DNA of 64,000 nucleotides from the NCBI RefSeq assembly GCF_002105155.1, contig NW_019028993.1, positions 62,001 through 126,000 of the forward strand, given 5' to 3'. The position numbers and the translations under genes were made by a program. Positions within the stretch are counted from its first letter, which is position 1. Every line of letters starts with the position of its first letter. This DNA comes from Lobosporangium transversale (lineage: Eukaryota). Shown piece after piece: positions 3,297 through 31,651 of the stretch. Below the pieces are notes generated by a model, which saw nothing but the letters and a program-made list of their open reading frames with translations, had not been told where the DNA came from and made no database searches.

Positions 3297-3564
3297 ACGA
3301 TAGAACGATAGGACGATAGAATGATGGAGGGGCCATTTCACATCGATGACCTTTAGCATTTAGACATCTTCTTGAAGCATTATATTTTTTAGAGTAGCAC
3401 TCGTGTACATTAAAATTAAATACCTTTTTTTTATTCGCATTTATGTTGTTGATCGCGTGGTTAAAAAAAATTTGTCTTTGAAATGATGGTGTGATTAGAA
3501 ATATTTATCTGTTTTTCATCAATTGTCAAAAACCTTTTTCTGTCACGCTTGAATTCCTATAACT

Positions 3565-6920: not shown

Positions 6921-8590
6921 CTAGGGGCTGTTCGTCAATAAAGACTTTGTGCTGCCTGTGTTCATTTCCATCTCTTCCTGTTTAGGCACAACTCGTATGC
7001 TCTCAAACGCCATTGGGTGTATATCCGCTCGCATAATCCATAGCGCAGACACTGGATTATGAGGCGTCAATTGGATAGAAATGGTCTTGTAAAGCGAACT
7101 GGTATATTTTCCATCCAGGAGCAACTCTGTCAAGACCCATACATAGAAACAAGCCACCATGGCCACGATAATGAAGACTAACAACCACATTGGGATTTCT
7201 AGGCCTTTTTCCGGAGTAAAGACATCATAGAGTACATAGGCCTTTCGGCCATCAAAATCCATATAAAAGTTATGCCCCAACGACGCCATATATTGAGACA
7301 CAGCCACTGTATCATCCTGAAGCTGAGGGATCGAGGCCAAGGCCCGTTCACCATGAATTATAGGAGGAAAATGCTCAATCACCATGTCATTTCCACCATA
7401 ACGATCGGGTAAAGGACGCCAGTTACTTCTTGCTTTCACGTTATGGACTATTTGCTCTTTTGGCCTCACGACCAAGAGATTGATGACAGAGTACAGACAT
7501 ATAGGCAATGGAGAGCGAAAAAAGATTACAAAAGTGCAAAGCACGATGTCAATCATGGGTCCACGGATCCTCACTTCAGCTAGAAGTGTAGGATATTTGT
7601 CTCGAGATGTAACTGTCCTGATGATGAGTGCATTCATGGCTTGGAAGATCTCGTCCGCTCCTTGGAAAACTTCTTCGATTGAATCACTAGGTATTGATCC
7701 ATTAAATCCTAAGAACTTTACAGCTGTGGCAGCCATCACTAAGACATCACCGTTCTCATGAACACATTTTTTGATGACGGTACTAGGAAGTGTATTCATC
7801 TTGCTTTGCAAGTAAGAAAGAAATGGCATGTTGAGTCCACCCAAACCGCAGCTCACGCCTTGGTTCCTAAATTCGATTCCCACAGCCGTACCGCCTAGTT
7901 CTTTCCCTCCTGTGATAACTACACTCCATTGATTAGAAGATCCCTGCACAACGTTTGTGATGTTGTAGGAAGGAGCCTCTAGATCAGTCTGCAAGTAAAC
8001 TGATGTTTCAGAGCATTTTTCACTACCGAGTGGAGGAGTGGCCATCTGCTTGACCGTAAACTGAACGTTGGATTGTGCACAAACAATGTCGTAGTCTGTC
8101 TGTCGCAGAATATACAATCTTCTACTACTCGCCTCAGCGGTTGTGATGTTCTTAGTGCTGTTGATCAACAAGCCCATAGCCTCTGTAACATTTTCACCGT
8201 ATCGGATTGATTTAGACCAACCGCTGAAGGTTATTTCAGGGCCGATAGTGATAATCTGTGGTGTGATCTCTAAGATGCTGTCGCCTTTAATGAGTCTTTC
8301 TGCTGGAGAGATGAAGCGAGCCACACCTTTATCGAGCAGGCCAGCTACAAGGCTTGCCAAGATAGTGATCACCATGATGCATTTTGTACGGCTGGGGACA
8401 ATATAGAGCGAGTTGTAAAGCGAACTGATCATCTCCATGTAACCCCCTTGATGACCCCATCGGATACTGTTGGCATACTGGTCTCCGACCTGTGAATAGA
8501 TGGGAAGAATAGGCCTACTGCGGCAACCAGCAAGAACTGGAGGACTGCTAAGGTGATGTTGAGAGTGAAAATCGAGAGCGGAAGGAACAT
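6921..8590 (-). pseudogene. Three-TM, six-Cys-ectodomain family, copy A; 1-nt deletion frameshift near 8512-8516 (real lesion or assembly error)
   Basis: ATG at 8590 gives MFLPLSIFTLNITLAVLQFLLVAAVG. After a frameshift (gta ggc ct att versus copy B gta ggg gcc att) it continues GDQYANSIRWGHQGGYMEM into ORF 6921-8438, ending GLEIPMWL...LLDGKYTSSLYK. Confidence 0.8.
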
Positions 8591-8813
8591 TTGGCTATCC
8601 TTTTTTTTATTTTGTGAATATGTAGATTGTCTGTGTGTGACACAAGTGAGATACAGGAGAGAGGACTGTGCGAAATAACAATCGTCTTTGCCAAAAGACA
8701 TAAACAGAAATATCTTCATTTATTTAATTAAATTTTGTGCTAAATAGTTTCGATCATGCTTTCTAAGATTCAAGTCAAACAGGTATTTAAAAAATACATT
8801 TGCGCCTTGGCTT

Positions 8814-8846
<33 letters not shown>

Positions 8847-9505
8847 GTACAGAAAAAACTCTCACTACAGCACTTTTCACACACACATAATGCTGATAAA
8901 GTTGCCCATTCCATTACACGGTTCCCTTCCTCCTACAATTCTACAGATTCCTTTTATCGATACTATCCCTGGTTCCCAGGCCACTGAGAGTATACGATGA
9001 TCATCTTTTTACATAATGGAGTCCAAACATTCCATAACGAATCAAACCTTAAACCTTATTTTATCCTGAATTAAGGGATAAATAAATTCATATTTGTGTG
9101 TTTGAATGTCCATTCATGTGTGACATTAAACATTTCATCCATCATTTATTTATACATGTGCTCTTTTCAGCCTCGTATTCAGAAGAAATAAAGGAAGAGT
9201 CCCTTTAAAGCATTTCTTAGCCTAACACTCTCTTCTTGATATGACTATGGGTGTAAAGAAAATGGTTAAAATAAAAAATAATTTAGATTTTAAAATGGAC
9301 AGGAGGACAAGCTTTGACGCCACAACGGGCTGTGCCATTTTACCCATGTGATAACCTTGGGACAAGCAGCCAAACCAAGCAAACAAATGCTGGTTTTTCC
9401 AATCCATTGTTTAAAGTGTAAACAAATTTACTATTAGCATTCAACAAGGCTCGGCGGCGCGGAGAATATCAAAATTTAATTTATTCTTCGTCAGAAAAGG
9501 CCTAG

Positions 9506-11349
9506 TTAGCATTGTTTACCTTTGCAGTCCACATCATATTGTAAATCTGCTCTGCTGTCAGTTAATTGCAAACTACACTTCCCTTTATTATTGCAAAAAC
9601 ATACAGTCATGTCACATAAATTATTAAGACTAGGTATATTTATTTGCATTTTTTGAATATACAAGGGACTATCCATCAATAAGGCATTGGTATCTTTGGG
9701 CTCTGTGTTCTTTCCCATCTCCTCCTGTATAGATACGATTGGTATATCCTCAAACTTCATTGGTTCGACATCTACTCGCATGATCCAAGGCGCAGACGCT
9801 TGATTATAAGGGGACAATTGAATAGAAATAGTCTTGTAAAGTGAGCTGGTGTATTTCCTGTCCAGAAGCCCCTCTGCCAAGGTCCATAAACAGAAGCAGA
9901 CAACCATGAGTACGAGAATGACAATCAATAGCCACTTTGGGATCTCTAGTCCTTTTTCTGGATAAAAGACATCGTAGATCACATAGAGCTTCTCGGATTC
10001 CTCGGATTCAAAATCATTATGAAAGTTTTGTCCCAGCAGTGCCATGAGTCGAGATGCAGCCACTGTATCATCCTGGAGTTGAGAATTCGAGACTAAGGAC
10101 CGTTCACCATGGATTATGGGAGGGACATGTTCAATCATCATGGCATTTAACTTTTTTAAAGGATATATCGGAAGCGACTCGTTGCCTCTTGCTTTTTTGA
10201 TATCGACACTTTGTTCTTTTGGCCTCACGACCAAGGAATTGATGACGGAATATTGACATACAGGATATTGTAAACCTACAACGATAGAAAAAACACAGAT
10301 CACAGTGTCGAGCATAGTTCCACGAATCCTCACTTTGGCTAACATTGTAGGGCGATCCATGTCCGTGTCTGATGGAACTGTCCTTTTGATAAGTTCATCC
10401 ATGGCCTGAAAAATTTCATCATCTTCCTGGAAAAATCTTGTGGTTGTGTTGTTAAGCCTTGACTGAAACCCTTCAGAAAAATGTACAGTTGTGGCAGCCA
10501 CAACTGAAACATCCCCATCCTCATGAACACATTTCGTTGTGATAGTCCTGGGAAGACGATTCACTTTGGCTTTATTCGAGATAGCGAAAGATGGTATGTT
10601 GATTTCGCCTAGAACGCAGAGTATGCCTCGGTTCTCAAAGTTGATGCTCAAGCTCGCGTCATGCAGTTCTTCCCCTCCTGGAATAACCATACTCCATCGG
10701 TTAGGAAATCTCTGCAAAACGATTGTGGTATGGTAGGAAATAACCGAAGTTGTGGTAAAGCCGATATATGTATTGGAGCATCCTCCTTGAGTGGGTAAGG
10801 CAACATCATGATCCAGGAACTGAACGTTGGATTGTGCACAAACAATTTCATACTCTGTCAATCGCGGAATATATAATCGTCCACTACTGGCGTCAGCTGT
10901 TGGAATGTTCCTAGTACTGTTGATTAACAAGCTCATGGCCTCGGTAATATTTTCGCCGTATCGGATTGATGTAGACCAGCCGCTGAAGGCAATTTCAGGG
11001 TTGTAAATGATGAACTCGGGATGATTGCTAAGGTACTATCACCTTTGATGAGCCTTTCTGCTGGAGAGATAAAACTAGCCACGCCTTTATCGAACAGGCC
11101 AGCTACAAGACTTGCCAAGATAGTGATCACCATAATGCATTTTGTACGGCTTGGGACAATATGAAACGAGTCGTAAAGTGAACTGATCATCTCTACGTAT
11201 CCTCCTTGACGAGTCCATCGGATACTGTTGGCATACTGGTCCCCGAACCGTGAATAGATGGCAAGAATGGCCCCTACTGCGGCGAACAGTAGGAACTGAA
11301 GGACTGCCAGGGTAATGTTAAGAGTGAAAATCGAGAGTGGGCCAAACAT
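9506..11349 (-). pseudogene. Three-TM, six-Cys-ectodomain family, copy B; 1-nt deletion near 11017 and loss of the ancestral stop codon
   Basis: ORFs 10933-11349 and 9506-10936 are contiguous halves of a close paralogue of copy A (ccg -ag ttc versus A cca cag att). The position of A's TAG stop reads TTG (9662-9664), adding 52 unrelated residues. Confidence 0.8.
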
Positions 11350-12710
11350 TCAGCTGTCTTTTTTATTTTTAAGTGTGTGTGTTGCCTGTGGCAAAGCGGT
11401 TCTGGGGGAACTGTATCTCTTTTATACATTGCTAAGTAAAAATAAAGATGCAGCTCTCTGCCTGCCTTGACACAAAGTTTTCATTTAGACTTTTTTTTTG
11501 GTCCGAGAGAGTATTTTTTTACACACAATTGTTCATGCCTCTGTGCGGCTCTCTTCGTTCATTGACACAGCCCTGGTGCCCAGTCTAGTTTACAACCACT
11601 TATTCCAAAGTAAATCTTTATTTTTGTCATGAACTTTCGGTACCTGAGGAATAAGTTTATGTTTGGTGTAACCCTCCTACTTTCCTACTCTTCGCATGAC
11701 AATATTGGATCTAAAAGGATAATGGGAATAAAGATTGGCGATACCAATGGACAAACGGACAGCTTTGACGCCTCAGTGTTTATTATTATTTATGACAAGA
11801 GCAAGAGGTTCTGTCATATTAGCCACAAGATGATCCTTGACAAACAGTCAGATTTCAATGGGCAGAGCTTCCTCATCCGGCCTATTGAAGCAAGCGAGCA
11901 AGCCCATCTAATACTAGGTGAAGACAATAAAGAAAGCCTTATGTTCATTACCTGTACCGGCGATCCTTCCCTGTCTCATCCACAGCCTCCTATTCCATGA
12001 TCTTGTTTTTTTCTTTGTTTTGAAAAAGAAAGATAAAGGACGAGACCTGTCAGCCGTCGAACTTAAAAAAGAGAAAAAATTCGGGGTAGCTCTGCGGCCC
12101 GAGGTTATTGAAGAGTCGCTGGGTTATAAGGATAACTCAGTCGAGTTAATACGTTATGTCAGTTCTCCAACCTAGATCCCTTCCAAATCCCCCAACGTTG
12201 TCCAAAATATAGACAAGGCACTCAAAGGTATATTAATGCTGCAGAGAATAGTCTATCAATGTTCAATTTGTTCTTCAGTAGAAGCACAGCCTACGCTCCA
12301 TTTCCAACTAAAATAAAATATAAAAAGGCACAAGCTATGATCTAAGTTGACGTTGAAAAGAAATCATAGAGAAAGTATAAGAGATAGATCATTTTACATT
12401 CAAGAACAAGCTCCGAATTGGCAATCGAATCATGGAGATCATGAAGGATATCATCAAAGGTTGCATAAATGATTGCCAAAAGAATAGACCAAAGCTTTTT
12501 TTCATCAATTAATAGATTTGTTTGTTTTGTTCTCATTTAGATTGGGATTTGAGTTTGATCTTGCGAATCTACCCTGCCACTTTATTGTAAGAGCTGACCA
12601 TGGCAAAGTCAAGGGTCTGCAGTTCGTTATAATTAGGGTTATACATGTATGTATATATACTATTAGATGAACGAAAGCAGAGAGAAGAATATGTACACAA
12701 ATAAAAAAAG

Positions 12711-13270
12711 CTAGAGATTAACCATCATTAAAGCTTTGGTGTTGCTTTTATTCTTTTCCATCTGTTCCTGTATAAGTACGATTGGTGTATCTTCAAATTT
12801 CATTGAATCGACGTCCATTTGCATGATCCAAAGTGCCGAGATCTAACCGTGGACTGCCAATTCAGTAGAAATGGTCTTGTAAACTGAGCTGGTATATTTC
12901 TCATCTAGCAACCATTTTGTTAGGGTCCATAGTTAGAAGCAGGCCACCATGTCCACGAGAATGAGGATTATTAGCCATTTTGGGATCTCTAACCCATTTT
13001 TCGGACCAAAGATATCATAGACCACATCGAGCTTGTTGGATTCATAATAAGTAAAAAAAGTCTTGTCCCAGTCATGCTCTGAATTGAGACACAGCCATTG
13101 TATCATCCTGAAGCTGAGGAATCGAGATCAGGGCTCGTTCATCATAGACTATGAAAGGGATATGCTCAACCATCATGATATTTGTATCTGCGGAAATGGG
13201 CAATAAGGAATGGTTATCCCTTGCTTTTACGATATCGACCATTTATTCTTTTGACCTTACGACCAGGGGG
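12711..13270 (-). pseudogene. Three-TM family, copy C; 3' fragment only, with multiple stops and a frameshift
   Basis: Reverse strand reads LVVRSKE*MVDIVKAR...MMVEHIP..ERALISIPQLQDDTMAVSQFRA*LGQDFF / ..VVYDIFGPKNGLEIPKWLII..ACF*LWTLTKWLLDEKYTSSVYKTIS..., collinear with the C-termini of copies A and B. Confidence 0.9.
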
Positions 13271-13899
13271 TTGTGCACAGCTGCTCGCGTACAGTTCATG
13301 CACTTACACATGAAGCACAACTCTTTAACCTTCAAAGTTTATGAACTTAAACTTCAATCACACCAAAATTGGCCCCTGAACCTCATATTGAATCTTCATT
13401 TTGGAGGATATGGCCTTGTACAGAGATCATATGTAAATGATACTCCAAAGAATGATGCAGGCACCAGTGATAACGCCTAGAAGCTATATTAACTAATTTG
13501 ACACGTCAGTACGTAGAGAGAGTTGCTTACTCAGTCTGGAATGGTGCTATGGTTGAGCAGTGCCTTACAAGTTGCAATAGACGCTATTGAGGCCTGTAAA
13601 CAGACTGTAGAAACCTATGTAAAGCAGCCCCTGGCAGCTTTAGGGGAATAGGCAAATGACATTATGCCCGTAAGATGTTGCGGCTTGGACTCACAGTACA
13701 TACGAGTTACACTGGATGAAAAGCTATTCAGCTTAATTTCTTCTAGAAAGTTCAAGTTGGTTGTAGTCTTTGGGTTGTTTGGTCCGTAACCTGAAGCGAC
13801 TCATCATACTTGATAATGCCTGGCGAAGGAATGTCGCAGAATCCATGCACTTTCATTGATTAAAAAGTGGGCTGAGAAAAGCGACAACACTCCTACTTC

Positions 13900-14889: not shown

Positions 14890-15090
14890 ATGGCCAACTT
14901 TGAAGACCCTTGGGCAAAGCATCACGCCTGGCGCAACAGCACCATCTTCACACGCTCTGCTCGCATCCGCACCATGTTTCCCGGCCTCGGAATCGCCTCG
15001 GTTGCATTTGCCGCATATCTCGGATACGAGTACATTACCGCACCCAAGGCTGATGCCCATCACCACCAACACGGCGAGACTCACCACTAA
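14890..15090 (+). CDS. NDUFB3: NADH:ubiquinone oxidoreductase (complex I) B12 subunit
   Basis: DPW....AWR....F.......MFPGLGIASVAFAAYLGYEY followed by a His-rich tail matches fungal NB2M/B12. Confidence 0.9.
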   Translation: MANFEDPWAKHHAWRNSTIFTRSARIRTMFPGLGIASVAFAAYLGYEYITAPKADAHHHQHGETHH

Positions 15091-16744
15091 ATTCAGGGAA
15101 CCATCAAGATGGCTTTGTCAGGATGCGGGAAAGAAGTGAACTAGAGGCGTATCAAAAAAGACGTAATGCTTTTACCCGTATGAGTAGAAAAAAATAATAA
15201 TAATAAACAAGGAAAAAAAAAAAAAAAAAAAAAAAAAAGAAAAGAAAGGACGATTGGAACAAAAGCGTTTAGGGACGATCCTTGTTTGTGAATTGGTGAA
15301 GCGAACGAGCTTGACACAGGAAGAAGAGGAAAAAAAATACAGAGAGCATACCATTTGAGGTTGTTGGATAAATTATCTCTCTACTTTTTCCAGTCAAGGA
15401 ACTGTGTTGAACATATTGACGATGTTTTGTATATTATAATTTCCCAAGGCCTTCCCACAGTCAAAAAATCAGAATGCTTTTTTTCTTTTTTCTGTTTTTT
15501 CGCTCGTCGTTTCTGTCTTTTTAAAAATCTATAATACTTCGCGAAAGCTTTCAAAATACGACTCTCCCAACAATACTTTGCCTGCAAAATGGTTTATCAA
15601 TCTTTCTCATCGGCCTTTTTTTTTTGCTAACATGGAAACATAAACACCTCTCGACAAAAGGAACCATACAGATGAATAAACAATTCCTTGTAGTATTTTT
15701 GAAATTCCTCTATTACTTATTTCCATCCTACCAAGTTTTATCTTTAACAGTATCTGTTGAATCATCAATATAATCGCGCGATGATGCTCAAAAACCATAG
15801 ATATTGGTTCAACGAACTGAGTCTATATAATTCATAGCTGTTGATTAGATAATCAAACATGACTTGTAAAGAAAATAATAATAATAATAATCAAATACCA
15901 TGAATGGCCATTTTCGCAATTATATGACACCAGTTTAGCTAAGACAGTTCACTACATCGTGCTCAGGGACACAGCCATCGGTTTTCAAGTGATTGTCATT
16001 AACTTCATAATTAAAAAAGAAGCTATCAACATCATAGGAAGGAGCCCATAGATGTCCCTATTTTAGGGGCTTGGATAGCAACATGGCTTTTGTACGTGAA
16101 TTAATGAAATTGCTAGGATTTCAGTCTACACTGCGTTGGAGTTTGGTCTAGCTTGATGTAGTAAAGCATTGACCGACTCAAATTAACCCCCCTATCACAA
16201 ATAGCATAAACAGCACAGACTTGGAGCTAAAACACAAACAATGCAGAAATAAATAAATAAAAAAAGACGGTGAACCCAGGAGCGTTTTTTTGTCAATTGG
16301 CAGCGATCATTATCTTAGTGCAGTCGCTTAAAGCCTTCAATCAAAGCTGTATTACGACGCATGCACACAATGCTTGGATTTGCATAAATAAATATGAAGT
16401 GGCGCCCGAAGAGGTTGGCGTTTAAATGGGTCATGATTACCATTTTTCTTCCGATAATCTACCCCTGCAGGAGATGTCTCTCTTCATATTACATACCTCA
16501 ATTGATGCTAAGGAGAGAAGGAATTATTTGTTTAATTAAATGCTATGGACTATCTGATAACATAGCTTTGATGGATCTATTCTATGCACATGGCTCACCG
16601 AGAATCAGGTTTGCACTCGAAACGCTCTTAGCGGTGGGTCAGTGCAGAAACTAAAAATAAAAAAATAAAAAAAATAATAGATGAATACGCTAATCAATAA
16701 AATATCTAAAACGGGCTGAATGATTTCAAAGGGAAAATTATATA

Positions 16745-17000
16745 CAGTGGAATCTCGATAATTGTACACTTTTGTACAAATTTCAAATTTGATATATTTC
16801 TAGGCCATTGATTGGCTAAGAAGCCCACAATTCATGAAAAACTATTCTAAAAATCCTCTGCTGATTCCCCTACTCCAGTTGAGTGTGGGTTTTTTAGAAT
16901 ACTTTTTTTTAAAAGAGTAAGGCTCTTAGCCAACCAATGGCCTAGAAATATATCAAATTTGAAATTTGTACAAAAGTGTACAATTATCGAGATTCCACTG
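16745..17000. mobile_element. MITE of Tc1/mariner-pogo type, 256 bp, about 77-bp terminal inverted repeats, TA target-site duplication
   Basis: The left end CAGTGGAATCTCGATAATTGTACACTTTTG...GGCTAAGA (16745-16821) is the reverse complement of 16924-17000 with one mismatch. Flanked by TA at 16743-16744 and 17001-17002. No coding capacity. Confidence 0.92.
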
Positions 17001-17293
17001 TATGAAAGTGCAACCTCAAATGTTTGCCCAGCAAAGGAGAACAGGCGCACAAGCGTGAATTACTCTTCCCGAGACAATTTTTTTTTTATTCTTAATGTAC
17101 TACAAGGTCTGAGAAACAGTGCGACACAAAAATGCGCGCACAGACATCAAATCTCGACTCATCGGCCTGAAGTGTGAGACCCATTCACCCATAATCATCC
17201 GCAGTAGAAAAGCAAGGAGAATGTTGCCCTAAATGAGTTGCACCATGAAAAAATAAATTTGTTTAGGCATATTTACAGTAGTTACAGTCTGTC

Positions 17294-17332
<39 letters not shown>

Positions 17333-17928
17333 GAAGTAAATATCTCTAACAATACTGCGCCAGATCATTTCACGCCAAAAGCATTTGCAGTTGAGTTTAT
17401 TCCCAGTTTTTGGGTCCCTTATCCGTTTTTCTTTTCTTTCTTTTGTGTTAATGGGACAAATGACATCCAAGAGTGGATAGAAATAACCGGGGTGCCTTGT
17501 GAGACAATGCGTGGTCAATGCGTAAAAGCATTCGAGTGTCTGAATGCCGTGGATGCTCAAAATAAATTATTTCCCTTATTTTGAGACATGATGTTTTTAA
17601 AAATGCTGTCTGTGCACGATTTGAGTCCAAAAGCTCGGCCCCAAGCTAAAACAGGTCTGTATGCACTTTGCACCACACGTTGTAATGTTTAAAACACAGA
17701 CAAGGTGCCAAGCTGAGACAGCGCACCAAAAAAAAAAAAAAAAAAAAAATCACCGATAACCAGCCATATCATAGCTCATATTTCGACCATTCTCGCTCGA
17801 ATATCTCAACGTCTTAGGTACTCCATGCTTTGACCTTGCAAATGTGTCATAACTTTTACTCACGCCTCACCAGATCAAGGTCATTACCGTATAGTGGGGA
17901 CACTGGAGCATAGAGTCTTCAACTTTTC

Positions 17929-18119: not shown

Positions 18120-18323
18120 ATGAAGTTCTCCATCACCCTCACTACCCTCGTCGTCCTTGCTCTCTCAGTCATGTCCATTCAAGCTGCTCCAGTCGATACG
18201 AATCTCGTTGAGAAAAGGGCTTGCTGCAGTTCTCTCCCCACCTGCCAAAAATTGTCACCCGAATATAGATTACAATGCATGATGAGAGCCAAAACCTTAG
18301 GCAATTGCAGTTCAAGATGTTAA
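18120..18323 (+). CDS. Small secreted cysteine-rich prepropeptide 1 (signal peptide, pro region, KR site, 34-aa mature peptide with 6 Cys)
   Basis: MKFSITLTTLVVLALSVMSIQA-APVDTNLVEKR-ACCSSLPTCQKLSPEYRLQCMMRAKTLGNCSSRC, with a TATA box and a poly(A) signal. Confidence 0.85.
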   Translation: MKFSITLTTLVVLALSVMSIQAAPVDTNLVEKRACCSSLPTCQKLSPEYRLQCMMRAKTLGNCSSRC

Positions 18324-19462
18324 GCAAGAGGATAGTCACCAAATCCACTCAAGAGTCTACCGATAATAAGAGAGATTGTGTGCAGACTTTATACTTTGCT
18401 GGTTCCAAAGTTCCTCTATACTCAATATATTTCTTATAGTCTTATAATTTAATAAACACATGTAATTCAAATCTGTGTATCAGTTCATTATATCTATTAT
18501 CTGCTATTCAACTTCCTGTGCACTGTAGCCGACAGAGCGACAATGGAAGAAATCGAGAGCATATCAAGGGCAACTCTATCTGTATTTTATGAAAAATATT
18601 AGTAATTTGATTTCTGCGGTAAAGTTGAGAGATGATCTACGCAGTACACTAAAGGAATACACTGAAATCATCGTGGCAAAATATCTGAGATTAGGCCTGT
18701 CAGGAGTAACAAGAATACCTCGAACTCTTCCGAAGAAATGACTTTGGACTGCATATTGACAATAATATATTGTTCACCGAAAATGTTTTCGATAACTACC
18801 GGAAACTAAAGCAACCAAATAACGAAAACAATAGACAGCATTGGTGAGCATACAAGCAAGCAATGACAGTTCTCGACATCCATCGAGTCATGAAGTAAAG
18901 TCCACATTACCAACCTCAGTTATGTTTGCCCATGTCACTGGGGTCGGTGTCAATGTTTTCAAGAATAGGCGTGAGTGCCCTACTGGTCACAGTACTTAGT
19001 CGATGTCATCAAGATCCCTATGCTAAGGAAAATACACGTCCCTTATAGCCGCGCATCGGCCTTTAAGATCTATTAAAATGAGGAACGGTAAGATTTACCG
19101 CTGATTTCAAAGTCCCTTGCATGTAGCATGACATTTAGAATTGATAAATGCCCTTTATTAGAAGGATTGAAAGAACGGGATTTAAATGCTAAATCCAACG
19201 CTTCAACGAAAGCTGTTCCAGAGCCCAGAGCTGCTATGTGAGCTTTCCTAAGTTGGTGATTTATAACCTTACATAGAACAGACGGGGTATAAGGTATCCC
19301 AGTCCTCCCATTTAATTTCTCTGAAAGAGAAGAAGTTTAATAAATGGGTGCGATTTGAAGCTTTCTAATACCTTCAATGCTCAGTCTTACAAGAGGTTTA
19401 TGTATCTACCTGACTGTATATTTTATAAACGCGAGTTTTTATTACAGTTAACAATATCGTGA

Positions 19463-21193
19463 CTAGGATTTGGGATTATTGATCGTGGAAGAGGCACAAT
19501 TAGCTATAACTTTTGAACTATGTTTTGTATCCACATTAGAACTAGGCTCTGTGGGAATGACAGGAACACCTTCAAACTCCACAGGGTTGACCTTCGACCG
19601 CATCAGCATTGGCGCAAAGTTGTTCAAATAGTGTTGCATCGGAAGCGCGATTGTTTTGTAGAGCGAGCTGGTATATCGTCCGTCTAAGAGGTACTCCGTG
19701 GCCACCAGAAAAACAAGACAGCAGGAAGCGATGACGGGTACAAGAATGATAAGCCATTGGGGGATCTCAAGGCCATGCTCGATGTCGATTGTGTCATATA
19801 ACACAATTAAGCGGCTCTTAGTGAGATCAGCTAAAAAGTTGTATCCTAATTCCGCAAAGTACTGGGATATCGCAGCCGTAGCGTTTCTGATGCTGGAGAT
19901 TGAGAATTGCGCTTGGCCTGCTGATCTAAGGTAGGTGATTTGCATTGAGATGCTCTCGTCTTTCATTTCTGGCAAGACGCCCCCAAACTCAGATATTATT
20001 TGAGGATCGATTCTTTTTTCCTTCAACATATTTATCTCAGCGACTACGTACAAACACAATGTGATATCTTTGAAGTTGGGATTGGTGTAGTCGCCATTGA
20101 AGTCATCTATGAGTTCCCAAGGCAAGTAGCGGGTTGGGGCACATGTCAAAACATTGATGGAGGTGCCTTGAATCCTCATCTCACTGAATACACTAGTGAT
20201 GTTTCCTGGACCTGCAGTTGCATTCTGAATGACCGGCTCCATAGCTTGAAAAAGTTCATCGTAATCATCAAATATTTCTTTCGAAGTTTCGTTAAAGAAA
20301 TTTGACGGGGTAATCACAAAGTTCATATCGGAAACGGTGATTGTAGTGACTCTTCCAGAAGGAAAAACGCATTTTTTTATCGAAGTCATCGGTAAAATGG
20401 TTAATCCATTAGTGGGTTCAAGAGTTACACTTCTGAAGGTGTTAGGCAAAGTGCAAACCTCTCCATCGCGATCCACGGCAATGTTCATGACCAAATCATT
20501 GTAAAAATTAAAGGATTCAGATTTTACAGAGACGCTCCATCGACTGTCAGACCTCTTCTTTTTGCGCATGGTTTTTGTATTAAAGACTATTGGGGCGCCG
20601 CGGATGCTGAGTGTAGTCTTTGCACAACCATTGTTTTCCAAAAGAGCCCTAGAATCGTCTAACATTGCGTAAATATCTAGCTTGTCACATCCGCTTTCAT
20701 ATGGCGATAGTTTTGGGGTATATATCCGCCCTTCAACAGCATCTGGGATAAGTTTAGTGTCGCCTATCATTGCTACTACGGTGTCCACAGCGGTAGAGAT
20801 ATTACGGATAGACTTTGACCATCCACTGAACATACTCTCTCCAAGTGGCAAGTACTGTTTGGTGTTTACAATAGCGGAGGATGGATTTGTTGCTCTGGTT
20901 GTAGGCTCAATGAATCGTACTGCTCCTCTTCCCATGATGGCTGCTGCGAGCGTGGCGAGAATGGTGAATAAAAGTGCTGTTTTGGCTTGTAGTGATATGT
21001 CGTTACGAGTGTTGATGAGGAAGTTGAACATTTCCAGGTATCCTCCTTGTCGGACCCATCGGATACTGTTAGCGTGCTCGCCGCGGAGCCTAGAGTATAC
21101 AGCAATAGCAGCGCCGATAGAGGCAACTACAAGGAACCGTGTGATGGCCAATATGATATTGACGAAAACAAGTGTCCAGGGATAATACGCCAT
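19463..21193 (-). CDS. Three-TM, six-Cys-ectodomain family, copy D (intact, about 576 aa, intronless)
   Basis: MAYYPWTLVFVNIILA.. TM1; GEHANSIRWVRQGGYLEM; TM2; ectodomain with 6 Cys and several N-X-S/T sequons; GLEIPQWL plus TM3; LLDGRYTSSLYK. Confidence 0.88.
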   Translation of the reverse strand: MAYYPWTLVFVNIILAITRFLVVASIGAAIAVYSRLRGEHANSIRWVRQGGYLEMFNFLINTRNDISLQAKTALLFTILATLAAAIMGRGAVRFIEPTTRATNPSSAIVNTKQYLPLGESMFSGWSKSIRNISTAVDTVVAMIGDTKLIPDAVEGRIYTPKLSPYESGCDKLDIYAMLDDSRALLENNGCAKTTLSIRGAPIVFNTKTMRKKKRSDSRWSVSVKSESFNFYNDLVMNIAVDRDGEVCTLPNTFRSVTLEPTNGLTILPMTSIKKCVFPSGRVTTITVSDMNFVITPSNFFNETSKEIFDDYDELFQAMEPVIQNATAGPGNITSVFSEMRIQGTSINVLTCAPTRYLPWELIDDFNGDYTNPNFKDITLCLYVVAEINMLKEKRIDPQIISEFGGVLPEMKDESISMQITYLRSAGQAQFSISSIRNATAAISQYFAELGYNFLADLTKSRLIVLYDTIDIEHGLEIPQWLIILVPVIASCCLVFLVATEYLLDGRYTSSLYKTIALPMQHYLNNFAPMLMRSKVNPVEFEGVPVIPTEPSSNVDTKHSSKVIANCASSTINNPKS

Positions 21194-21783
21194 GATAGAA
21201 TAAGAATTGAACAAGTAAAAAAAAAAATAGAGGGAGAGAAAGAAAAGTGAGAGGGATCGTGGTAAAAAAAAAAAAAAAAAAAAAGCATACTTTATATTCA
21301 ATTACTTTTTCCCTTGCCCAGAATCTGAAACGCAAACTGGGGGTAGCATACAAATTTGAATTCAGGGGAATGACGGCACAAACAAAAACCTAAATGTTTG
21401 CCTGACTTAAAAATCAGAGAGCACTGCATCTTACCCTAATTTAATCGACTGAGGCGGAACCCCTGAAACGCAAACAGCACAGCAGTGGCATCAATTGTTA
21501 GAAGCTCTGGTTACCAAGATTTGTTGAAGTGTTTCAGGATTATTAGTTGATAGTCTATACAGGAGTATCATTTATGTCATTGTTTGCATTCAGACCATGG
21601 GGCCATGGATGATTGTTGGCGCAAACTCTCATCAAGGATGCTGCATTGCTGTGATAGGATTAAGGTTAGAGATGACAATAGGTTTTCCTTAAATTTTGAT
21701 TTGCCAGACATCAAGAGCAGCTTTAATTTTCCGTCCTCACGCGTTGATTCACTATATTCATAATCCGCATTCCTACCTTGATC

Positions 21784-23500
21784 ATGGCCAATACATTGAG
21801 TACTGCTCGAGAATCCTCGGCCACGGATACGCTTCTCACCGGATCAAAAGCCATACAGGGACAAGACAATAAAGGAAAGAATAAGAAGAGCATAAAAGAT
21901 GAGAGAGGCAGCAGTAAGGACATTGAAAAAGAGAATGAACCTCCTCTTAATGATGACACAATTCCGAAGCAGACCCAGGGAACTAAGCTTGCGCCTAGTA
22001 GCGCTGAGTCCGACAAGGAGAATTTTGCGGGCGCCAAAAAACGCAAGCGTTCACGATCAACGCGAATTGTACCGCTGAATGAATGCAATGATGAGGTTGA
22101 GGAATCGGAAAGTGAAAGCAGTGATCGCGACTCTGATGATGACTACGCGACTCATGGAAAGAAGAATAAAGTAGACTTGTCTGAGCACATCAAACGGGGC
22201 TCTTCTAGGCGTCGACACGAGCCAGAGATGTCAGAATATGGTGAGTCCTTTTAATCGTATCCATTACTACGAGATCAATGATAACTCGGAAGACTAATGC
22301 TAGGCTTCAGAAAAACAACGACTGGAGAATATCAAGAGGAACCAGGAGATGCTCCAGTTCTTGGAATTACCTACAGTCACGACAGCTATAATGACAGTTT
22401 CTATCGAAGACAAGAATGACACAAGTCTTAGTGACCAAGAAAAGCCAATAACTGCTTCTATAAGGTACTGAATGTGCGTAGTATAGCAGCCTTATTTTAT
22501 TTAAGCGAATTCTTGGTAATACTAATATCATGTTATCTTGAATAGAATACGGAAGCAGCGTGTGAAGTCAGGTACATATAAATACAACACAATGTGCTGA
22601 GACAACGGCTCTGTATCTGACAATTTATTTTTCTTTGCTATACCGAATACTATAGTTCCCAAAGTTGTACAATCAGTCAGAACTTCAAACAGATTGCGTG
22701 GACTCCCCGTGAAAAGTATTGAGGTTGGGGAAGACGACAATGTGCATCGCGAGGAATCACCAGCTGTCAAAAAAACTAATATCAAGACAGAGCACCGTAA
22801 TGAAGATGATGCTAGCGATAACGAAGAAGATGCAGCTAATCTTATGTCAGGAGATTTATTTTTTGATGAGGAGACAAGAAAGAAAGCCATTCGTGTCGAT
22901 GGCCATTACAAGGGCTGGTTGAATGAAGGCGTCATGAAGAGATATGGCTTTGAAAAATCTGCGCAGGAAGCATGGGAAGCAAATGGCGGAGGTGCATTTT
23001 CATTCAAAGACCTACAAGGGCTAGGTGATAGTACAGGAGGTGCCAAATCTAAATCATCAAAGAAACCAAAACATGACGCCAAGATGGTTGCAAAGGCCAT
23101 GTTCAAGAAAAACCCTAATGCGTTTTTCTATCGACATAACGAACCAGGCCAAGTATGCAGACGTCCATATCGCTCATGAACTATTATTAAATTGTTGCAT
23201 GCCAAATCAGTCTTCTTATTTTATTTTGTTCCGTTTGACATTCAAATACGATAGGAGCAATGGACAGGAGATTGGACAACAGAAGAAGGAGAGTTGTTTC
23301 TCAAGGTAGTAAAGGAATTTGGATGTGGTGATAAATGGGGTCTGTTTGCCAGCCACATTCCACACCGCGTGGGATATCAATGCAGCAACTACTACCGTCA
23401 GGTTGTCTTGCCTACAGGCCTGGTTTTTGACCCCAACTATGAATACACATCAAGAGGCAAACCGGTTTATTGCGGCAAGTACAACCAACGGCGCGATTAA
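21784..23500 (+). CDS. Myb/SANT-like domain nuclear protein. Exons about 21784-22240, 22311-22464, 22546-22571, 22656-23152, 23255-23500
   Basis: Spliced product has a basic NLS-like KKRKRSR, a SEYEKQRLENIKRNQEML motif, and NPNAFFYRHNEPGQ|EQWTGDWTTEEKELFLKVVKEFGCGDKWGLFASHIPHRVGYQCSNYYR (Myb repeat). Introns are canonical and frame-consistent. Confidence 0.8.
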
Positions 23501-23799
23501 AAAAATCCATAACTGTAAATATCTATATATCTATCCTTCAATATGACTATACATTCTTAGTATATTTTCCGTTTGCAATAAAGAAGGCAAAGAGAACTCT
23601 CTTACTTTGCCTGGAATCAAAAGTGGCTGCGGTTGTTCTATTCTATGTTTTTATGTGTCTCTGAAAAATAAAAATATGTCTAGTCTAGTCTACAAATGGT
23701 GTCAAAATACTGATGTGCGGATGTGGTGCAAAAAGCACGGTGCATAAAAATAACTGCATGGGTGGGTGGGTGGTGGGGACGGGTAAAGGTATTATGCCT

Positions 23800-26232
23800 T
23801 CATTCTCTTCCTGCGCGTTGGTTTTGACGACGCCTATTGGCATCCAATTCACGCTTCCTAATCCTCAGGGAGGACTGAGTCACCTCGAGAACCTCATCTG
23901 CTGCAAGATAGGAAATCATCGACTCCAAACTCATTTCAACCGGTGGGCGCAGGATGATATTGTCATCTTTGGCAACTGTGCGGATGTTTGTCACCTGTTT
24001 TGCGCGGGTAGGGTTCACTTCCAGATCGCCAGCACGGGAAGACTCTCCAATGACCATACCAGCGTAAACCTTGTCGCCCGGACGAATGAACAGCTTACCG
24101 CGAGGTTCGATCAAATTAAGAGCATAGGAGGTAGCTGCTCCAACAGTTCCCATGGCGACTAAACTTCCTTTGCGAGATCTTTCAAGGCCGCCTTTATAGG
24201 GCATATAGCCCAAGAAAGTATGGTTCAATGTCCCATCTCCACTCGTGTCATTCTTAAATTCTGAAGCATATCCCAATAATCCACGAGTCGGGCACTCAAA
24301 GATAATACGAGTCTTGTCTCCGTTTTCCTCGAAGCTCTTGAGCTCAGCCTTGCGTTTACTTAGCTTCTCAATGATAGTTCCAGTGTACTGATTACCAACA
24401 TCAATAGTGACTTCTTCGATCGGCTCCAGACGCTCTCCATTCTCTTCTTTGTACACAACACGAGGAGGCGACACGCTGAGTTCGAATCCTTCGCGACGCA
24501 TAGTTTCGATCAAAACTCCAAGCTGCAACTCTCCACGTCCACGGACCTCAAAGGCTTCTTTGTTTTCTGACTCCACAACCTGGAGAGCGACATTAGTCTC
24601 TGCTTCCTTCATCAGACGATCGCGGATCATGTTGGAAGTCAAACTCTTGCCTTCCTCTCCAGCGTAGGGCGAATCATTGACAGAAAACTTCATGACAATG
24701 GTGGGAGGATCGATAGGATTGGACTATAATTAAGTGTATAAAAAATTAAAGGTTAGCAGGCACCAAATGCGATTGTTCTCAAAAAAGAAATCGTAGCAAG
24801 ATCTTACAGGAAGTGGCTCAGTGACACTAAGGTCACAGAGAGTCGAGTTGACTGTTGCATTAGCGACTCCTGTAAGTGTAACAATGTCACCCGCACCAGC
24901 CTCGTTCACAGGGATCATCTCCAATCCACGACGAACAAAGATCTTGGTACAACGTCCAGATTCAGTCTGTTTTCCTTCGCGATCCAAGGCTTGCATCTTA
25001 TCACCAATCTTGATAGTGCCTCCAGTGATCTTCCCGAGGAAGCACTTTCCAAGGTAAGGATTGCTGTCGATTTGGGTGACAAGCATCTTAAAAGTATCAG
25101 AACGGTCAACCTTTGGTGCAGGAACGTGATCGACGATCAAATCCAACAGAGGCCTCATGCTTTCACGGGCCTCATTCATGCCGCGTGTGGCCCAGCCTTC
25201 CTTTGCGGAAGCATACACAATAGGGTAATCCATTTGCTCGTCAGAAGCACCCAGTGAGCTAAACAAATCCAGCAGTAATCCGTCGACTTCGTCTACGCGC
25301 GAGGTTGGGCGATCAACTTTATTGAGGACGACAAGCGGACGAAGGCCAGTTGACAAGGCCTTATTCAGGACAAACTTAGTCTGCGTCATTGGCCCCTCAC
25401 TAGCATCTTTGATTAAGATTCAATATTAGATTTGGCAATAGAAACACTTAAAGCTTTATATCTTCATAGATACTTACCAACAATCAACGCAACGCCATCA
25501 ACCATTGACAGAATGCGTTCTACTTCGCCGCCAAAGTCAGCATGTCCGGGCGTATCTACATTATCGGGGTAAATTGTAAGTAAACCAAAATCGACATTCG
25601 AAAAAGCGTCTTTGCTTAATAGAAACCAGCCCATATGTTCAATAGCAACATAACATACCGACAATGTTGATCTTGATAGGCCTGCCGTCTGCAGTATTAT
25701 AGACAACAGATGTGACTTTAGAGAGGATGGTAATACCTCTTTCTTTCTCAAGTGTGTTGGAATCCATGACACGGGTTGATCCAAGTGCTTCTCCTGACTG
25801 TGCTAACAATTTGTCGACAAGCGAAGTCTTTCCATGGTCGACATGAGCTAAGCGAATAAGTCCCATCAGCACACATATTTATAAAAGAGACAAGATACTC
25901 AAGGCTATTACTTTAATCTTACCAATGATAGCAATGTTGCGGATATTTTCTACAGGCATCATGTCTTCAACAGTCAATGATGGGGTGGCTAGTTCCTCCT
26001 GAGAAGCCTCTGTGACATAGCAACGACGAAGGAACTGTGAACTTGTAGTAGCTGTTCTCCAAAGCTGCGCTTTTGATAAAAGTATTCCTGCATGAGGCGT
26101 CTGTGCCTTGACCGGAATAGTCATAACATTTCTCAACAATGGTCTTGAAGCTGAGGCCCCTGTAGTGATGAATGGCCTAGCGAAGGGTAACTTCACCGTT
26201 GCAGTCCTGAGAGAAGGTCGAATGGCAAACAT
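23800..26232 (-). CDS. typA: TypA/BipA translational GTPase with putative mitochondrial presequence. Exons 26232-25923, 25847-25659, 25555-25478, 25406-24808, 24723-23800
   Basis: [50 protein letters not shown], and TypA-specific [21 protein letters not shown] and DEVLEVT..SLRIRK. The N-terminus is Arg/Ser/Thr-rich and acid-poor. Confidence 0.93.
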
Positions 26233-26773
26233 GTTCTTGATTAGTACAGAGTAACCGGACAAGTCGATCAGTTTGCTAATTTTGAATCAGATTCTCGGAA
26301 GAAGTTTATATTCAAAGCCACATTCTCGCCACCAACACTGCTTGTTTCATCTTTTTAAGGTTTGAGTTTTAGAATCTGTCAGGGGTACAAACAAACAAAT
26401 CAAAATTGCAATTAACCCGCCACTGCTGTGTCAACTGTATGCGCAATCACTTGGTCATTCAAACTTAAGATTCTATGGCATATATAAACTAGCGAGGTTT
26501 AAGATAGATCCCCATCCTTCTTTCCTCACCCTCGTTTTCCTCTATCATTTTCCTCACTCGTTTCTCTCCCCTCTTTTCTAGAATTCCTCTAGTTGTAAAT
26601 ATCTAATAGTCGCTACGACATCCATAACACCCGTATTTTAATTTCTTCTCCTCTTAAAACAAATTGCTTTACACTCACTCTGTACATTTTCATCATACGT
26701 TATTTACCTTAACCCTGACCCTCTCACCATTGACGACATATTCACTTTCCTTCACCCCGAAACTTTCTTTATC

Positions 26774-28483
26774 ATGTTCGTGGCTTGGTCATTTCTCGGG
26801 CTCAACATCATCTTGGCCTTATTCCAAGCCTTACTTGTCAGTGCCGTTGGTGCCATCCTCGCCATTTATTCCAAATATGGCGATGAATACGCCAACAGCA
26901 TTCGTTGGGTTCGCCAAGGCGGATACTTTGAAATGTATAACACACTTGTCAACTCTCGCAACAGTATTCCTCGTTCAACAAAGCTCATACTCATTATAAC
27001 GATAGTTGTGAGTATTATTGCAAGTCTTTCCGATATTGGAGCCATCTACTTCATCGAACCATCAGAGGCACCAAGTCGAACAACATTTATAATCGTTAAA
27101 ACTACTCAATACGTGGTTAATTCTGGTCAGTACATACTCAGTGGCTGGAATACAGCAACCCGTGGCCGCTCAGACATTGTGGATGCCATAAAGCATATGA
27201 TAAACGATACAGCAAATATCCCTGGCTATGTGCCTGGGCTCGTCTACACCCCAAGGACTACCAAATACGAGATTGGATGCGATAAAATCGCGTTTCAGAT
27301 GTGGGATGGTGATGTCATATTGAATACACATCAAGATAGCTGCGCCACAGCCAACTTTACTATGGATGGAATAGTTGTAAGAGACTATTCAAAGATGACC
27401 GTCATACGCGAGTCCAGTAGCCGAATAAGCATTTCTGTACTTGGGCAATCTCCCATTTTTTTTACAGAAATGATCTCAACTACATCAATGACCATCTTTG
27501 GAGAGGAATGTGGGTTGTTGGAAGCGTACACGAACTCAGATATGCTTGCGGATGGAATTTCCTCTTTACCGGTAACTCAAGCTACCAAGTGTATCCTTCC
27601 GACTGGCGAAATAATTGTGATATCATCAACAGCAATACGTTTTTTCGTGGCGGACCCCCAACTTATTAACATCACAACTTCCACCCTCTTTCACGAGGAA
27701 AATGAGCTAGTTAAAGCAATGGAAACAACTGTCATGAAGGAGTCATTCACAAAGAATTCGACCTTACTTGTCGAGCTCAGGGCTGGCGACTCATCTCTGG
27801 ATGCATCAGGCTGTTTCTCAAATTGGAACACTGAGACAAATTCGACCAACCTGGCATGTATGTATATCAATTTCAAATACATCATCACCAAGGCCCAAAA
27901 GCCCGATAAAATTATTGCAGCTGCACGTGGAAATGCTCCATGGCCAAAGCCAGTGGGATATAGTTCGGTAATGGCCATTCAGCATCTTCCGACAATCACG
28001 TATAAGGAACCAAAGCATCTTTCCATCGCTGGCGCGAAGGATGCAACGAAATCAGTAGCTGATTATGTGGCATCATTGGGGCAGAACTTTTTCGTCGATT
28101 TTGCTCAGCGACAACTTTTAGTTCTGTACGATTCTTCAGAGTACGAAAAAGGCTTCGATATTCCTGATTGGTTGGCGATCGGAGCTTTGTGTACTATGGT
28201 AGTCTGTGCTATATTTTATGTCTCTACCCAGTATTTCTTGGATCCACGATACACTGGCTCGCTCTACAAAGTCATGTCGATTCACCTGGCAGACAAATAC
28301 AACAGCTACGCCCAAATGATTCGATGGTCCAAAGTTTACTCTATGCAGCTTGACGAGTTTTCGAATGCGGCATCCAATGATGATGAGCACCAAACCAAAT
28401 ACAACAACAAATCCGATGATGTCGAATATCAAACTAAATACACCAACAAATCCGATACTTCACTCAATCGCGGAATGTGGTGA
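26774..28483 (+). CDS. Three-TM, six-Cys-ectodomain family, copy E (intact, 569 aa, intronless)
   Basis: MFVAWSFLGLNIILA.. TM1; GDEYANSIRWVRQGGYFEM; TM2; 6 ectodomain Cys; GFDIPDWL plus TM3; FLDPRYTGSLYK. Confidence 0.9.
   Translation: MFVAWSFLGLNIILALFQALLVSAVGAILAIYSKYGDEYANSIRWVRQGGYFEMYNTLVNSRNSIPRSTKLILIITIVVSIIASLSDIGAIYFIEPSEAPSRTTFIIVKTTQYVVNSGQYILSGWNTATRGRSDIVDAIKHMINDTANIPGYVPGLVYTPRTTKYEIGCDKIAFQMWDGDVILNTHQDSCATANFTMDGIVVRDYSKMTVIRESSSRISISVLGQSPIFFTEMISTTSMTIFGEECGLLEAYTNSDMLADGISSLPVTQATKCILPTGEIIVISSTAIRFFVADPQLINITTSTLFHEENELVKAMETTVMKESFTKNSTLLVELRAGDSSLDASGCFSNWNTETNSTNLACMYINFKYIITKAQKPDKIIAAARGNAPWPKPVGYSSVMAIQHLPTITYKEPKHLSIAGAKDATKSVADYVASLGQNFFVDFAQRQLLVLYDSSEYEKGFDIPDWLAIGALCTMVVCAIFYVSTQYFLDPRYTGSLYKVMSIHLADKYNSYAQMIRWSKVYSMQLDEFSNAASNDDEHQTKYNNKSDDVEYQTKYTNKSDTSLNRGMW
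28376..28453 (+). repeat. Two imperfect 39-bp tandem units in the tail of copy E
   Basis: NDDEHQTKYNNKS / DDVEYQTKYTNKS. Confidence 0.8.
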
Positions 28484-29687
28484 ATCTTGAGTATATATCC
28501 TTCCCTAACAGTAGCTTCATCATCTTAATGTATATATATAGACTTATACCCATCATTAAAACAACTATTTTTTATTTAAAGTAATGAAATGATGAAAAAC
28601 AAGACTTCTTTCCTTCTACTTGATGATTGTGCATTGGGTCTCGGAGGTTTATTTTACCTAAGACTCATAATCAAGTCGTTTTATTAAACATAGTCAAATG
28701 GTGCTCTAACCTCCTTCATTCGTCGTCTTCCTCAACTTATTAATATACACATTAGCACACAAAAATGAGTCTAGATCACCTATCGATTAGCTTTTCTCTT
28801 ATATCTCTTATATCTTAGGAATCATCTATGTAGGCACTGATCGAAGTTGATACAAATAAAGCTCCCAATCCTACCTACGCGACTATTGTGTATGGGTATT
28901 TCAGCTAGATTCCTTATTGAATTAACTTTTAATTTTACTTTTCTTTTTCTTTTTATTTCTAGCTAGCCATGGATTCAGCTTTTATCTATTAACTTGGTAC
29001 TATATGGTCACACACCGTATCTCCTACAAAGGCTAATACTTAAATCATAAAAATGGACCACTGCTGGTCGCTATCCAATGTTAAAATCAAGAATTCCATA
29101 TGATTTTAAGCGCCTTAGGGATAAAGCTTGCTCTACAAAACTAGTATCATGGTGTCTGAAGAGTATCAGCTTCGATATAAGCGATCTAAATGAAAGATAA
29201 AGCAAAGGATTGATTCGATTTTCGCCTCTAAAAAATGAGTCCATGACTAGCTTGAAATAAAAAAAAAAAAAAAAAAAGTTGCTAATAAGGAGTCAAGCTG
29301 AAAAGAACTATATGCAACAAACACGTAAATGGAGGTGGGGGCTTTACTTGTAGCACGTATGATCAATGTCTACATAAAGAATGCCTAGCTGATGGATGGT
29401 ATTGGCTCATTTTTGCGTGTTAGTGTACATTACTGTCATAGATACCGTTCATGTTGTCTTTTATTGACTTGGTTCTTTTATTTTTCGCCATAATTTTATC
29501 CGCCAGCTACTAGATTCCGATAACACAGTTGACATCTCACGAATACGGTTAAATATTATTTATTAGGTATATCAACATGAACGGATTAGGGCGAGAATGG
29601 ACTAGATCAAAGGCGATTTAAACAAAGAATGGACGCGCTCCAAAGGCAGAAAAGTAAAGTTATCATCCTCTCGCGCTGATAATGAGG

Positions 29688-29909
29688 CTAAGGGGCCTTG
29701 CGACACTTATTAATACAGGTCATATATTCTCTGTTGGCACGGCTTTGGCATATATGCTTTGCTGAGCGTGGAACGCCTCTACATTCGTAACGCGTGCATG
29801 CGCATCCTCTTTTCTCAAGGACCTCAATCTCGGCCGGAGCAGTGCGGATAGAGGCGGACATGGCTGAGGACGCAAGAGCAAAGATAACAAGAGCGGTGGA
29901 GATCTTCAT
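29688..29909 (-). CDS. Small secreted cysteine-rich prepropeptide 2 (signal peptide, pro region, KR site, 39-aa mature peptide with 6 Cys)
   Basis: MKISTALVIFALASSAMS-ASIRTAPAEIEVLEKR-GCACTRYECRGVPRSAKHICQSRANREYMTCINKCRKAP, with TATAAAAG upstream and AATAAA downstream (about 29559-29564, minus strand). Confidence 0.87.
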   Translation of the reverse strand: MKISTALVIFALASSAMSASIRTAPAEIEVLEKRGCACTRYECRGVPRSAKHICQSRANREYMTCINKCRKAP

Positions 29910-30052: not shown

Positions 30053-31651
30053 AAGATTTTTTTTGAAAAAGAGAGAGAGAGAAAAAGAGAGACCTAACAA
30101 GTGTAGATGAGGCGGAATGATTCTGTCCGAGCGCCGAATTGTCGATATGGTTTCCTCTGTAGGGAATACAATATGGTGCATGACAAGTGATAGATGTTTG
30201 TATCATAACTTGGTCTGTAGCTCACTCAACCTAGGCTTATTGCTTGAAGATCACATTTTGTTTAACATAGTTGGCTAGGTCAGGGGCAGTTTGTCAGTGA
30301 TTATTTAAAAAATACGAAAGAAAAAACAATGTTACAACCAGCGGTAATAACCGTTTCTTTAAATTCTATTATAAAGAATATTTTAGTTGTAATCACTAAC
30401 CTACAACTATCAACGTTTAGTTTTTCTACTGACACCAATCAAAGTCGATGAAGCATTGTTTTTCAGTTCCTGGCATGTGGAGCGTAACTGTAATAACATT
30501 CAGTTATTAATATCGCCTTGGGACAAAAAAAAAAAAAAGTATTCACCGACAATAACAATGTATAGGCCGATCATTCTTTACAAACAGGACTTTGATCGTT
30601 ATCGCTTTATGACATTGTTTTTGCGTACTCGGTAGGAGTACTTGTTTCACCTAGACATGTTCAAAAGACAATGGAGCCCCGAATACATTGCCGCCGCCCT
30701 CAGTAACTTTTATGCAAATGCTAATACACATGAAGGTTAATCCTATGGAATTCCAGGGCACTCAAAGCAATCAATGCTGAGCCTGGCTCAAGAAACGAAA
30801 GCATACACACACACACACAAAAACAAGTCATTTTAAGCCTACGAATTCAACATCTTAGCAACAAAACAAGGGCTGAGAGTCGAGACATTCGAGCCAATTG
30901 ATCACGAAATACGTGACAATAAAAATACTAAGAGGACTGATATTTGTTTTTTTCACTTAGATATTTATGGATCGAAGGAGTATGTGGACTAAATAAGAGA
31001 CTCGCATAAAAAAACGGGGAACCCATCTTAATGCATTTATAATGATTAGGACACCTGTTTCTCTCCTAAGTGAATAAAAGTTGCGATTGAAAAAGAGAAC
31101 ATGACAAAGTCTTTTTGTGAAAGATTAATGGCAAGTTGAACAGCCGATAGAAAGAATAAGGAGAGTTGAGGATAGTCAGAATGATAGAAAAAACTTTTTT
31201 GTCGGACTGAGATTGTTTGATATAGTATAGTATAGTATGGTTCGGTTTGGTTGGATAGTAATGATGTATAAACGAAAGAGTATATAAATGTTTTTTTTTT
31301 TTTTTTTTTTTTTGCTGTTGAGTATCGTGAGGATAAGAAATAAAGTGAGCGCTTGGCCATCTTTTATAGGAAATGGCGAATGAAGCTCTCATAACAATCC
31401 ACTGTCTCGGCTTCACTATGGCGATCTCTTGGCCTCAAGAGGTGCGGGCAAAATTTTTTGAGACATTAGTAGATCAGTGCATGCATTTCCAAGCCAAAAC
31501 ATTTAAAGCGACTTGACCAAAAATGGCCATGAAAGGAGCTCTATTAGGTTCGAATGTTTAGTGACCCCATTATTTGTAAATAAATACATGTAGATCACAT
31601 TATTTCACACCCCAGTTTTCTATATTTTTTATTTTACTTTACTTCTATTTA

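Follow-up and report, generated by a model that had tools for sequence, protein, structure and literature searches.

Lobosporangium transversale is a soil-dwelling fungus in the Mortierella family, and the 64-kb stretch of its genome that was analysed (the window) is fungal in character and contains spliced genes. Two pairs of genes lie within it in mirror image. In the first, a short open reading frame on the forward strand, P1 (18120-18323, 67 amino acids), faces D (19463-21193, reverse strand, 576 amino acids), a gene for a membrane protein with three transmembrane (TM) segments. In the second, the related membrane-protein gene E (26774-28483, forward strand, 569 amino acids) faces another short reading frame, P2 (29688-29909, reverse strand, 73 amino acids). 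Both pairs are tail-to-tail, with a stop-to-stop spacing of 1139 bp between P1 and D and 1204 bp between E and P2. The original prediction had described this as one module present twice, and a scan for open reading frames reproduced the coordinates, strands, mirror layout and gaps of all four genes exactly. DNA similarity was sought between the two intergenic spacers and none was found.

Two further genes, both spliced and neither part of the proposed module, occupy the interval between D and E. The first (21753-23625, forward strand) has four GT..AG joints in the contigs of an RNA run, and one of its exons was searched against Pfam with no match. The second (23662-26232, reverse strand) is a TypA/BipA-like GTPase gene (PF21018, E 9e-40) with joints in the same run. 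Neither gene is duplicated; thus the duplicated unit, if there is one, consists of a peptide gene and a TM gene alone. The RNA evidence comes from a single run of one study, with depths that are unfit for ranking genes. Its contigs skip GT..AG introns, and the run is therefore RNA-derived. D, which has a single exon, is matched by one contig at 19463-21205 and E by one contig at 26531-28563, in both cases with no differences. The bin that holds P1 (18010-18660) is also covered by contigs of this run, while the bin of the P1-D spacer is nearly uncovered. P2 has no contig in this one run, which is uninformative on its expression.

P1 and P2 have the appearance of prepropeptides. Each begins with a signal-like N-terminus and carries a KR site, followed by a mature part with six cysteines, which is 34 amino acids long with a net charge of +4 in P1 and 39 amino acids long with a net charge of +7 in P2. 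The cysteines lie at mature positions 2, 3, 9, 20, 30, and 34 in P1 versus 2, 4, 9, 20, 31, and 35 in P2, a near-identical register. TATAAAA motifs are found 191 nt upstream of P1 and 143 nt upstream of P2. Both products are predicted to be secreted and are probably cleaved at the KR site.

Do the two peptides derive from a common ancestor? The original prediction stated that they resemble each other, which holds for the prepro part and for the cysteine register; outside its cysteine frame, the mature part shows no significant likeness. With 5000 shuffles, the resemblance reaches p<0.001 over the whole sequences and over the prepro parts, whereas with the cysteines held fixed the mature parts are not significantly alike (p 0.35-0.52). 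Signal peptides resemble one another for compositional reasons, and the case for common ancestry therefore rests on the prepro match together with the cysteine register. By this comparison, a shared ancestry of P1 and P2 is likely but not proven.

A pattern written from P1 and P2 after the fact matches two reading frames in the window and none in 100 block-shuffled windows, and a profile of the two peptides detected no further intact peptide within the window. The best non-self score within the window, 36 against 30 for the next, belongs to a possible decayed paralogue of P1 at 17601-17675 on the forward strand, which has the same cysteine register as P1 but is a weak match (tblastn E 4.2). 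The exact sequences of P1 and P2 are absent from the protein collection searched. Another small reading frame of the window, 14891-15088, likewise has no exact entry there, so this absence is no evidence against the two peptide genes. A two-sequence profile run against 1.84 billion representatives gave no homologue at E<=0.001, and none of nine candidates was a homologue at E<=10. The best score in an Atlas search was 0.80, which is a lead only. A low-confidence model of P2 (pLDDT 53.7) has two C-terminal helices, and a structure search with it, for which the model is too weak to be of much use, matched nothing. P1 and P2 are previously uncatalogued genes for cationic, cysteine-rich peptides that have no detectable homologue.

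The membrane proteins had been predicted to be homologous yet strongly diverged and to share a three-TM architecture, and the comparison bears out both points. D and E are identical at 178 of 565 aligned columns (32%, E 1e-90), each has three hydrophobic segments, and an AlphaFold2 model of E (22-sequence alignment, pLDDT 78.5, pTM 0.66) contains three TM helices. In this model the TM segments lie at about 7-35, 67-93, and 465-488; two short helices stand between the first two, and a long strand leads into a beta-rich domain, from which a strand at 447-462 returns to the third. The beta-rich ectodomain would thus span about residues 94-464 (about 370 amino acids). Six of its cysteine columns are kept in 18-22 of the 22 rows of the family alignment, and 158 of the 171 N-glycosylation sequons of the 22 members fall within the 94-464 segment. 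The ectodomain is the least conserved part of the protein, with a majority fraction of 0.48, compared with 0.75 in the ANSIRW..QGG loop, the most conserved. The segment 94-464 is most naturally read as lying outside the cell and the conserved motifs as cytosolic.

How widely is this family distributed? A search with E gave 21 matches among 7993 scored candidates, and all 20 named relatives belong to the Mortierellaceae; a second search, using an alignment, matched 19 of 7992 candidates and added none. Apart from a Crinkler fragment on one protein, none of the 22 members matches a Pfam family at E<0.001. PF11374 (DUF3176) matches 0 of 22, with PF28465 and PF28351 possibly outside the HMM library searched, and PF11915 (DUF3433) likewise matches 0 of 22 at E<=0.5. 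A sequence search of the PDB found no solved relative. With the model of E as query, Foldseek found no PDB match at E<=0.001, and a comparison with 48161 chains gave none at Z>=8, the best rows matching helices only; a single viral structure was non-superimposable (TM 0.09). The ectodomain taken by itself may still have a known fold. Searches for family loci with one alignment (A1) in metagenome, prokaryote-genome, and viral contigs gave 36, 11, and 15 pattern matches, respectively, none of which was confirmed, and a C-terminal DNA motif picked out 18 + 13 loci, with 0 of 31 recognised by an HMM as belonging to the family (best score 7.5 bits).

By language-model features, the nearest group to E is a 177-member, mostly Mucoromycota cluster (0.98). 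Ascomycete clusters lie at 0.94-0.98. The nearest named ones, with proteins of 538-624 amino acids, score 0.94-0.96, and the families that name them, DUF8406 (PF28465), DUF3176 (PF11374), and CLZ1_N (PF28351), are found on just 10-58% of the members of those clusters (58%, 13-24%, and 10%, respectively). The TM family resembles this wider fungal group in such features only, which provides a lead and not membership.

Seven copies or remnants of the TM family lie within 24 kb of the window, between 6924 and 30768. Two reverse-strand copies other than D are near-full-length, A (6924-8590) and B (9671-11349), with frameshifts in the assembly near 8510 and 11020, respectively; neither has a peptide reading frame at its 3' end, and exact look-ups of their truncated products in the protein collection found nothing. 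Remnant C (12714-13242, reverse strand) is a C-terminal part with stops and a frameshift. A probable but weak remnant, C2 (13328-13500, reverse strand), retains the third TM segment and the SLYK motif with several stops (tblastn E 0.73, HMM E 0.068). On the forward strand, some 800 bp past the P2 start, is a probable remnant of the family C-terminus, F (30706-30768; HMM E 1.5), with an ungapped score of 52 compared with 51 for copy B and 28 for the best non-family sequence. The region also contains a MITE-like inverted repeat at 16742-17003.

Within the window, therefore, a peptide gene is found at the 3' end of both intact copies (2/2) and at none of the five copies that are broken in the assembly (0/5). 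A and B are each frameshifted by a single base, which an assembly error could explain; in that case the contrast between intact and broken copies is gone. The mirrored layout itself is real, and this contrast strengthens the observation somewhat.

The history of D and E was examined with a family tree of 24 rows and a second tree without the long-branch rows BGZ68_008597 and BGZ65_003864. D is sister to BGZ76_003813 of Entomortierella beljakovae (support 100/100), and E falls in a nine-row clade with BGZ76_003810 of the same species (100/98), while A and B cluster with BX616_005016 of L. transversale. D and E stand far apart in the tree, each with relatives of its own, which rules out a recent duplication of the two. 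When both long-branch rows are left out, the D and E lineages lie on one side of a branch with a weak support of 80; with both in the tree, their sisterhood is not resolved. BGZ76_003810 and BGZ76_003813 are on contigs of equal size (32552) with two locus tags between them, just as two genes lie between D and E. The layout thus looks old, and it likely predates the split from E. beljakovae. The peptides are either long-standing neighbours of D and E or later arrivals. Family members with consecutive tags are found in other relatives (BGZ72_000695/696, BGZ70_008323/324, and BGX20_001805/806). Together with the density of the family in the window, these point to a family that multiplies readily by itself; with P1 and P2 missing from the annotation here, such tags say little about peptides in those genomes.

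Could the arrangement have arisen by chance? Random placement puts both peptides within 1.5 kb (<=1.5 kb) of the 3' ends of the only intact copies (two of seven) with a probability of 0.013, or 0.003 when strand is included, assuming two independent placements. For two independent convergent peptides near family copies the figure is 0.003-0.04. These values use rough gene bounds and windows chosen after the fact. Both pairs may come from one old duplication, and hence they are not independent; a single placement that was then duplicated has a chance of 0.06 (intact copies) to 0.20 (either side, any copy). The low two-placement figures argue against the idea that two abundant lineage-specific families gathered in a rearrangement-prone region and that the mirror layout is a coincidence. 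So do the nearly equal gaps and the lack of any sign of an abundant peptide family in the collections searched, although short genes often go unannotated. The crowding of seven TM copies or remnants, the possible peptide remnant, and the MITE-like repeat into 24 kb would fit such independent arrival, as would the finding that D and E are not recent duplicates, but we regard it as distinctly improbable.

The higher single-event figure leaves more room for hitch-hiking, in which a peptide gene came to lie beside an ancestral family member by chance, the two were copied in one old inverted duplication, and the synteny has persisted. Microsynteny does appear stable here, with the D...E arrangement kept in E. 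beljakovae; the family duplicates without peptides, as A, B, and C illustrate; and any common origin would leave gaps of nearly the same length. The peptides would then likely be stand-alone antimicrobial or signalling molecules, and the role of the TM proteins would be unrelated. Against this, both peptides have kept intact reading frames and promoter-like motifs while D and E fell to 32% identity and no alignable intergenic DNA remained, and five peptide-less copies decayed meanwhile. Hitch-hiking is a credible explanation whose probability falls somewhat below even.

The alternative is that each peptide and the intact TM gene facing it form a cognate pair, either ligand and receptor or toxin and immunity protein. 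Here we infer secretion, processing, topology, duplication, binding, and function. The peptide would be a secreted, Kex2-type-processed, cationic product with six disulfide-bonded cysteines that acts at the cell surface of neighbouring hyphae, where the variable ectodomain of the three-TM protein would bind it, as a receptor or as protection of the producer. The two pairs would go back to an old inverted duplication; thereafter peptide and ectodomain would diverge together, with the prepro part, the cysteine frame, and the cytosolic motifs fixed, and family copies duplicated without a peptide would decay. The confinement of the peptides to intact copies counts in favour of this reading, as do the old layout, the variable and sequon-rich ectodomain, and the conserved prepro part with its divergent mature part. 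A conserved prepro part joined to a divergent mature part on a fixed cysteine frame is a pattern seen in toxins and recognition ligands. Counted against a cognate pair are the density of the family and its tandem occurrence in relatives, the single-event chance, mature peptides that are no more alike than their cysteine frame predicts, the weak sisterhood of D and E, and the possibly spurious frameshifts in A and B. The cognate-pair reading is accordingly held only tentatively, at just short of an even chance, and hitch-hiking and coincidence are jointly slightly likelier.

Linkage of a secreted cysteine-rich product to a membrane partner is found in yeast killer toxin/immunity systems and in plant SCR/SRK. 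The L. transversale pairs would share with these a cysteine-rich prepro product, probably with Kex2-type processing, and a linked membrane partner, but D and E have no kinase or known signalling domain, and their cytosolic tail is merely short; searches by sequence and with Pfam found no similarity. In fungal pheromone/receptor loci, too, the gene for a small peptide adjoins one for a membrane protein. However, D and E have three TM segments and are not seven-TM receptors, which excludes a pheromone/GPCR mating locus, and neither P1 nor P2 is a precursor of the repeat or CAAX type. CxC and CxxxC motifs mark the cystine-stabilised helix peptides of the endothelin/apamin order. P2 has a CxC near its mature N-terminus and a CxxxC in its predicted C-terminal helix, a lead only, whereas P1 has CC instead of CxC.

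A further comparison, and a precedent for the way in which a cognate pair would work, is cwr-1/cwr-2 of Neurospora crassa. There, secreted CWR-1 and membrane-bound CWR-2 are encoded by linked genes and mediate allorecognition; CWR-1 acts in trans on CWR-2, and specificity maps to large, variable ectodomains of about 330-355 amino acids, ED2 (G164-R496) and ED4 (N746-A1100) (10.1101/2025.01.17.633681). The systems are alike in linking the gene for a secreted product, predicted as such for P1 and P2, to that for a membrane protein, and in ectodomain size. They differ in that CWR-1 is a polysaccharide monooxygenase, whereas P1 and P2 are 67- and 73-residue peptides with no such Pfam match, and in that CWR-2 combines eight TM segments with two DUF3433 domains, in contrast to three TM segments and no DUF3433 match in the D/E family. 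At the cwr-1/cwr-2 locus, haplogroups are in linkage disequilibrium, and strains that are unlike are blocked from fusing. The differences in partner type and TM number rule out membership in this system.

No description of the TM family, of P1 and P2, or of such a gene pair in the Mortierellaceae was found in full-text literature drawn mostly from papers outside subscription. It is rather unlikely, though worth considering, that the locus belongs to a peptide-based self/non-self or kin-competition system of the Mortierellaceae, in which hypervariable six-cysteine peptides, missed by annotation, would each be matched to a cognate three-TM partner, either a receptor or an immunity protein. Should the pairing fail, both peptides would still merit assays for antimicrobial activity. 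If the pairing is true, an expanded membrane-protein family with neither a known fold nor a known function would gain a testable ligand, and recognition or competition among common soil-dwelling and root-associated fungi would become easier to study. If the self/non-self reading is also true, this would be the first ligand for a large, uncharacterised group of fungal membrane proteins, which may also take in the DUF3176-like proteins of Ascomycetes.

The uncharacterised family of three-TM membrane proteins is represented in the window by decaying as well as intact copies. Four decaying copies (A, B, C and C2) form a tandem array at 6924-13500, where A and B share 59% identity over 422 aligned residues and each carry one single-base frameshift. 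A short remnant matching the C-terminus of the family lies at 30706-30768, past the start of P2, the six-Cys peptide gene found tail-to-tail with the intact copy E.

Approximately 450 bp upstream of P1, the peptide gene tail-to-tail with the intact copy D, there is a candidate decayed P1 paralogue on the same strand (17601-17675); the match is statistically weak, and its Cys register is that of P1. A MITE-like inverted repeat occupies 16742-17003, with 80-nt arms that are 99% complementary and spaced 102 nt apart. Contigs with differing letters map over this repeat, which suggests that the genome holds additional copies of it.

Between D and E lies a gene for a TypA/BipA-like GTPase (23662-26232), whose N-terminus looks like a mitochondrial targeting signal. 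A long ORF at 3553-6108 has a long acidic N-terminal part, followed by a C-terminal half that, by its motifs, looks like Spo11/Topo VIA.

In the protein collection, D is clustered with three unrelated ENA sequences of 45-47 aa, one of which represents the cluster; D is therefore absent among the search hits. This grouping looks like a clustering artefact. Among the family members, BGZ81_006298 of Podila clonocystis (P0013) ends in a fragment of the Crinkler N-terminal domain (PF20147, E 2.4e-11), which may reflect either a fusion or a merged gene model.
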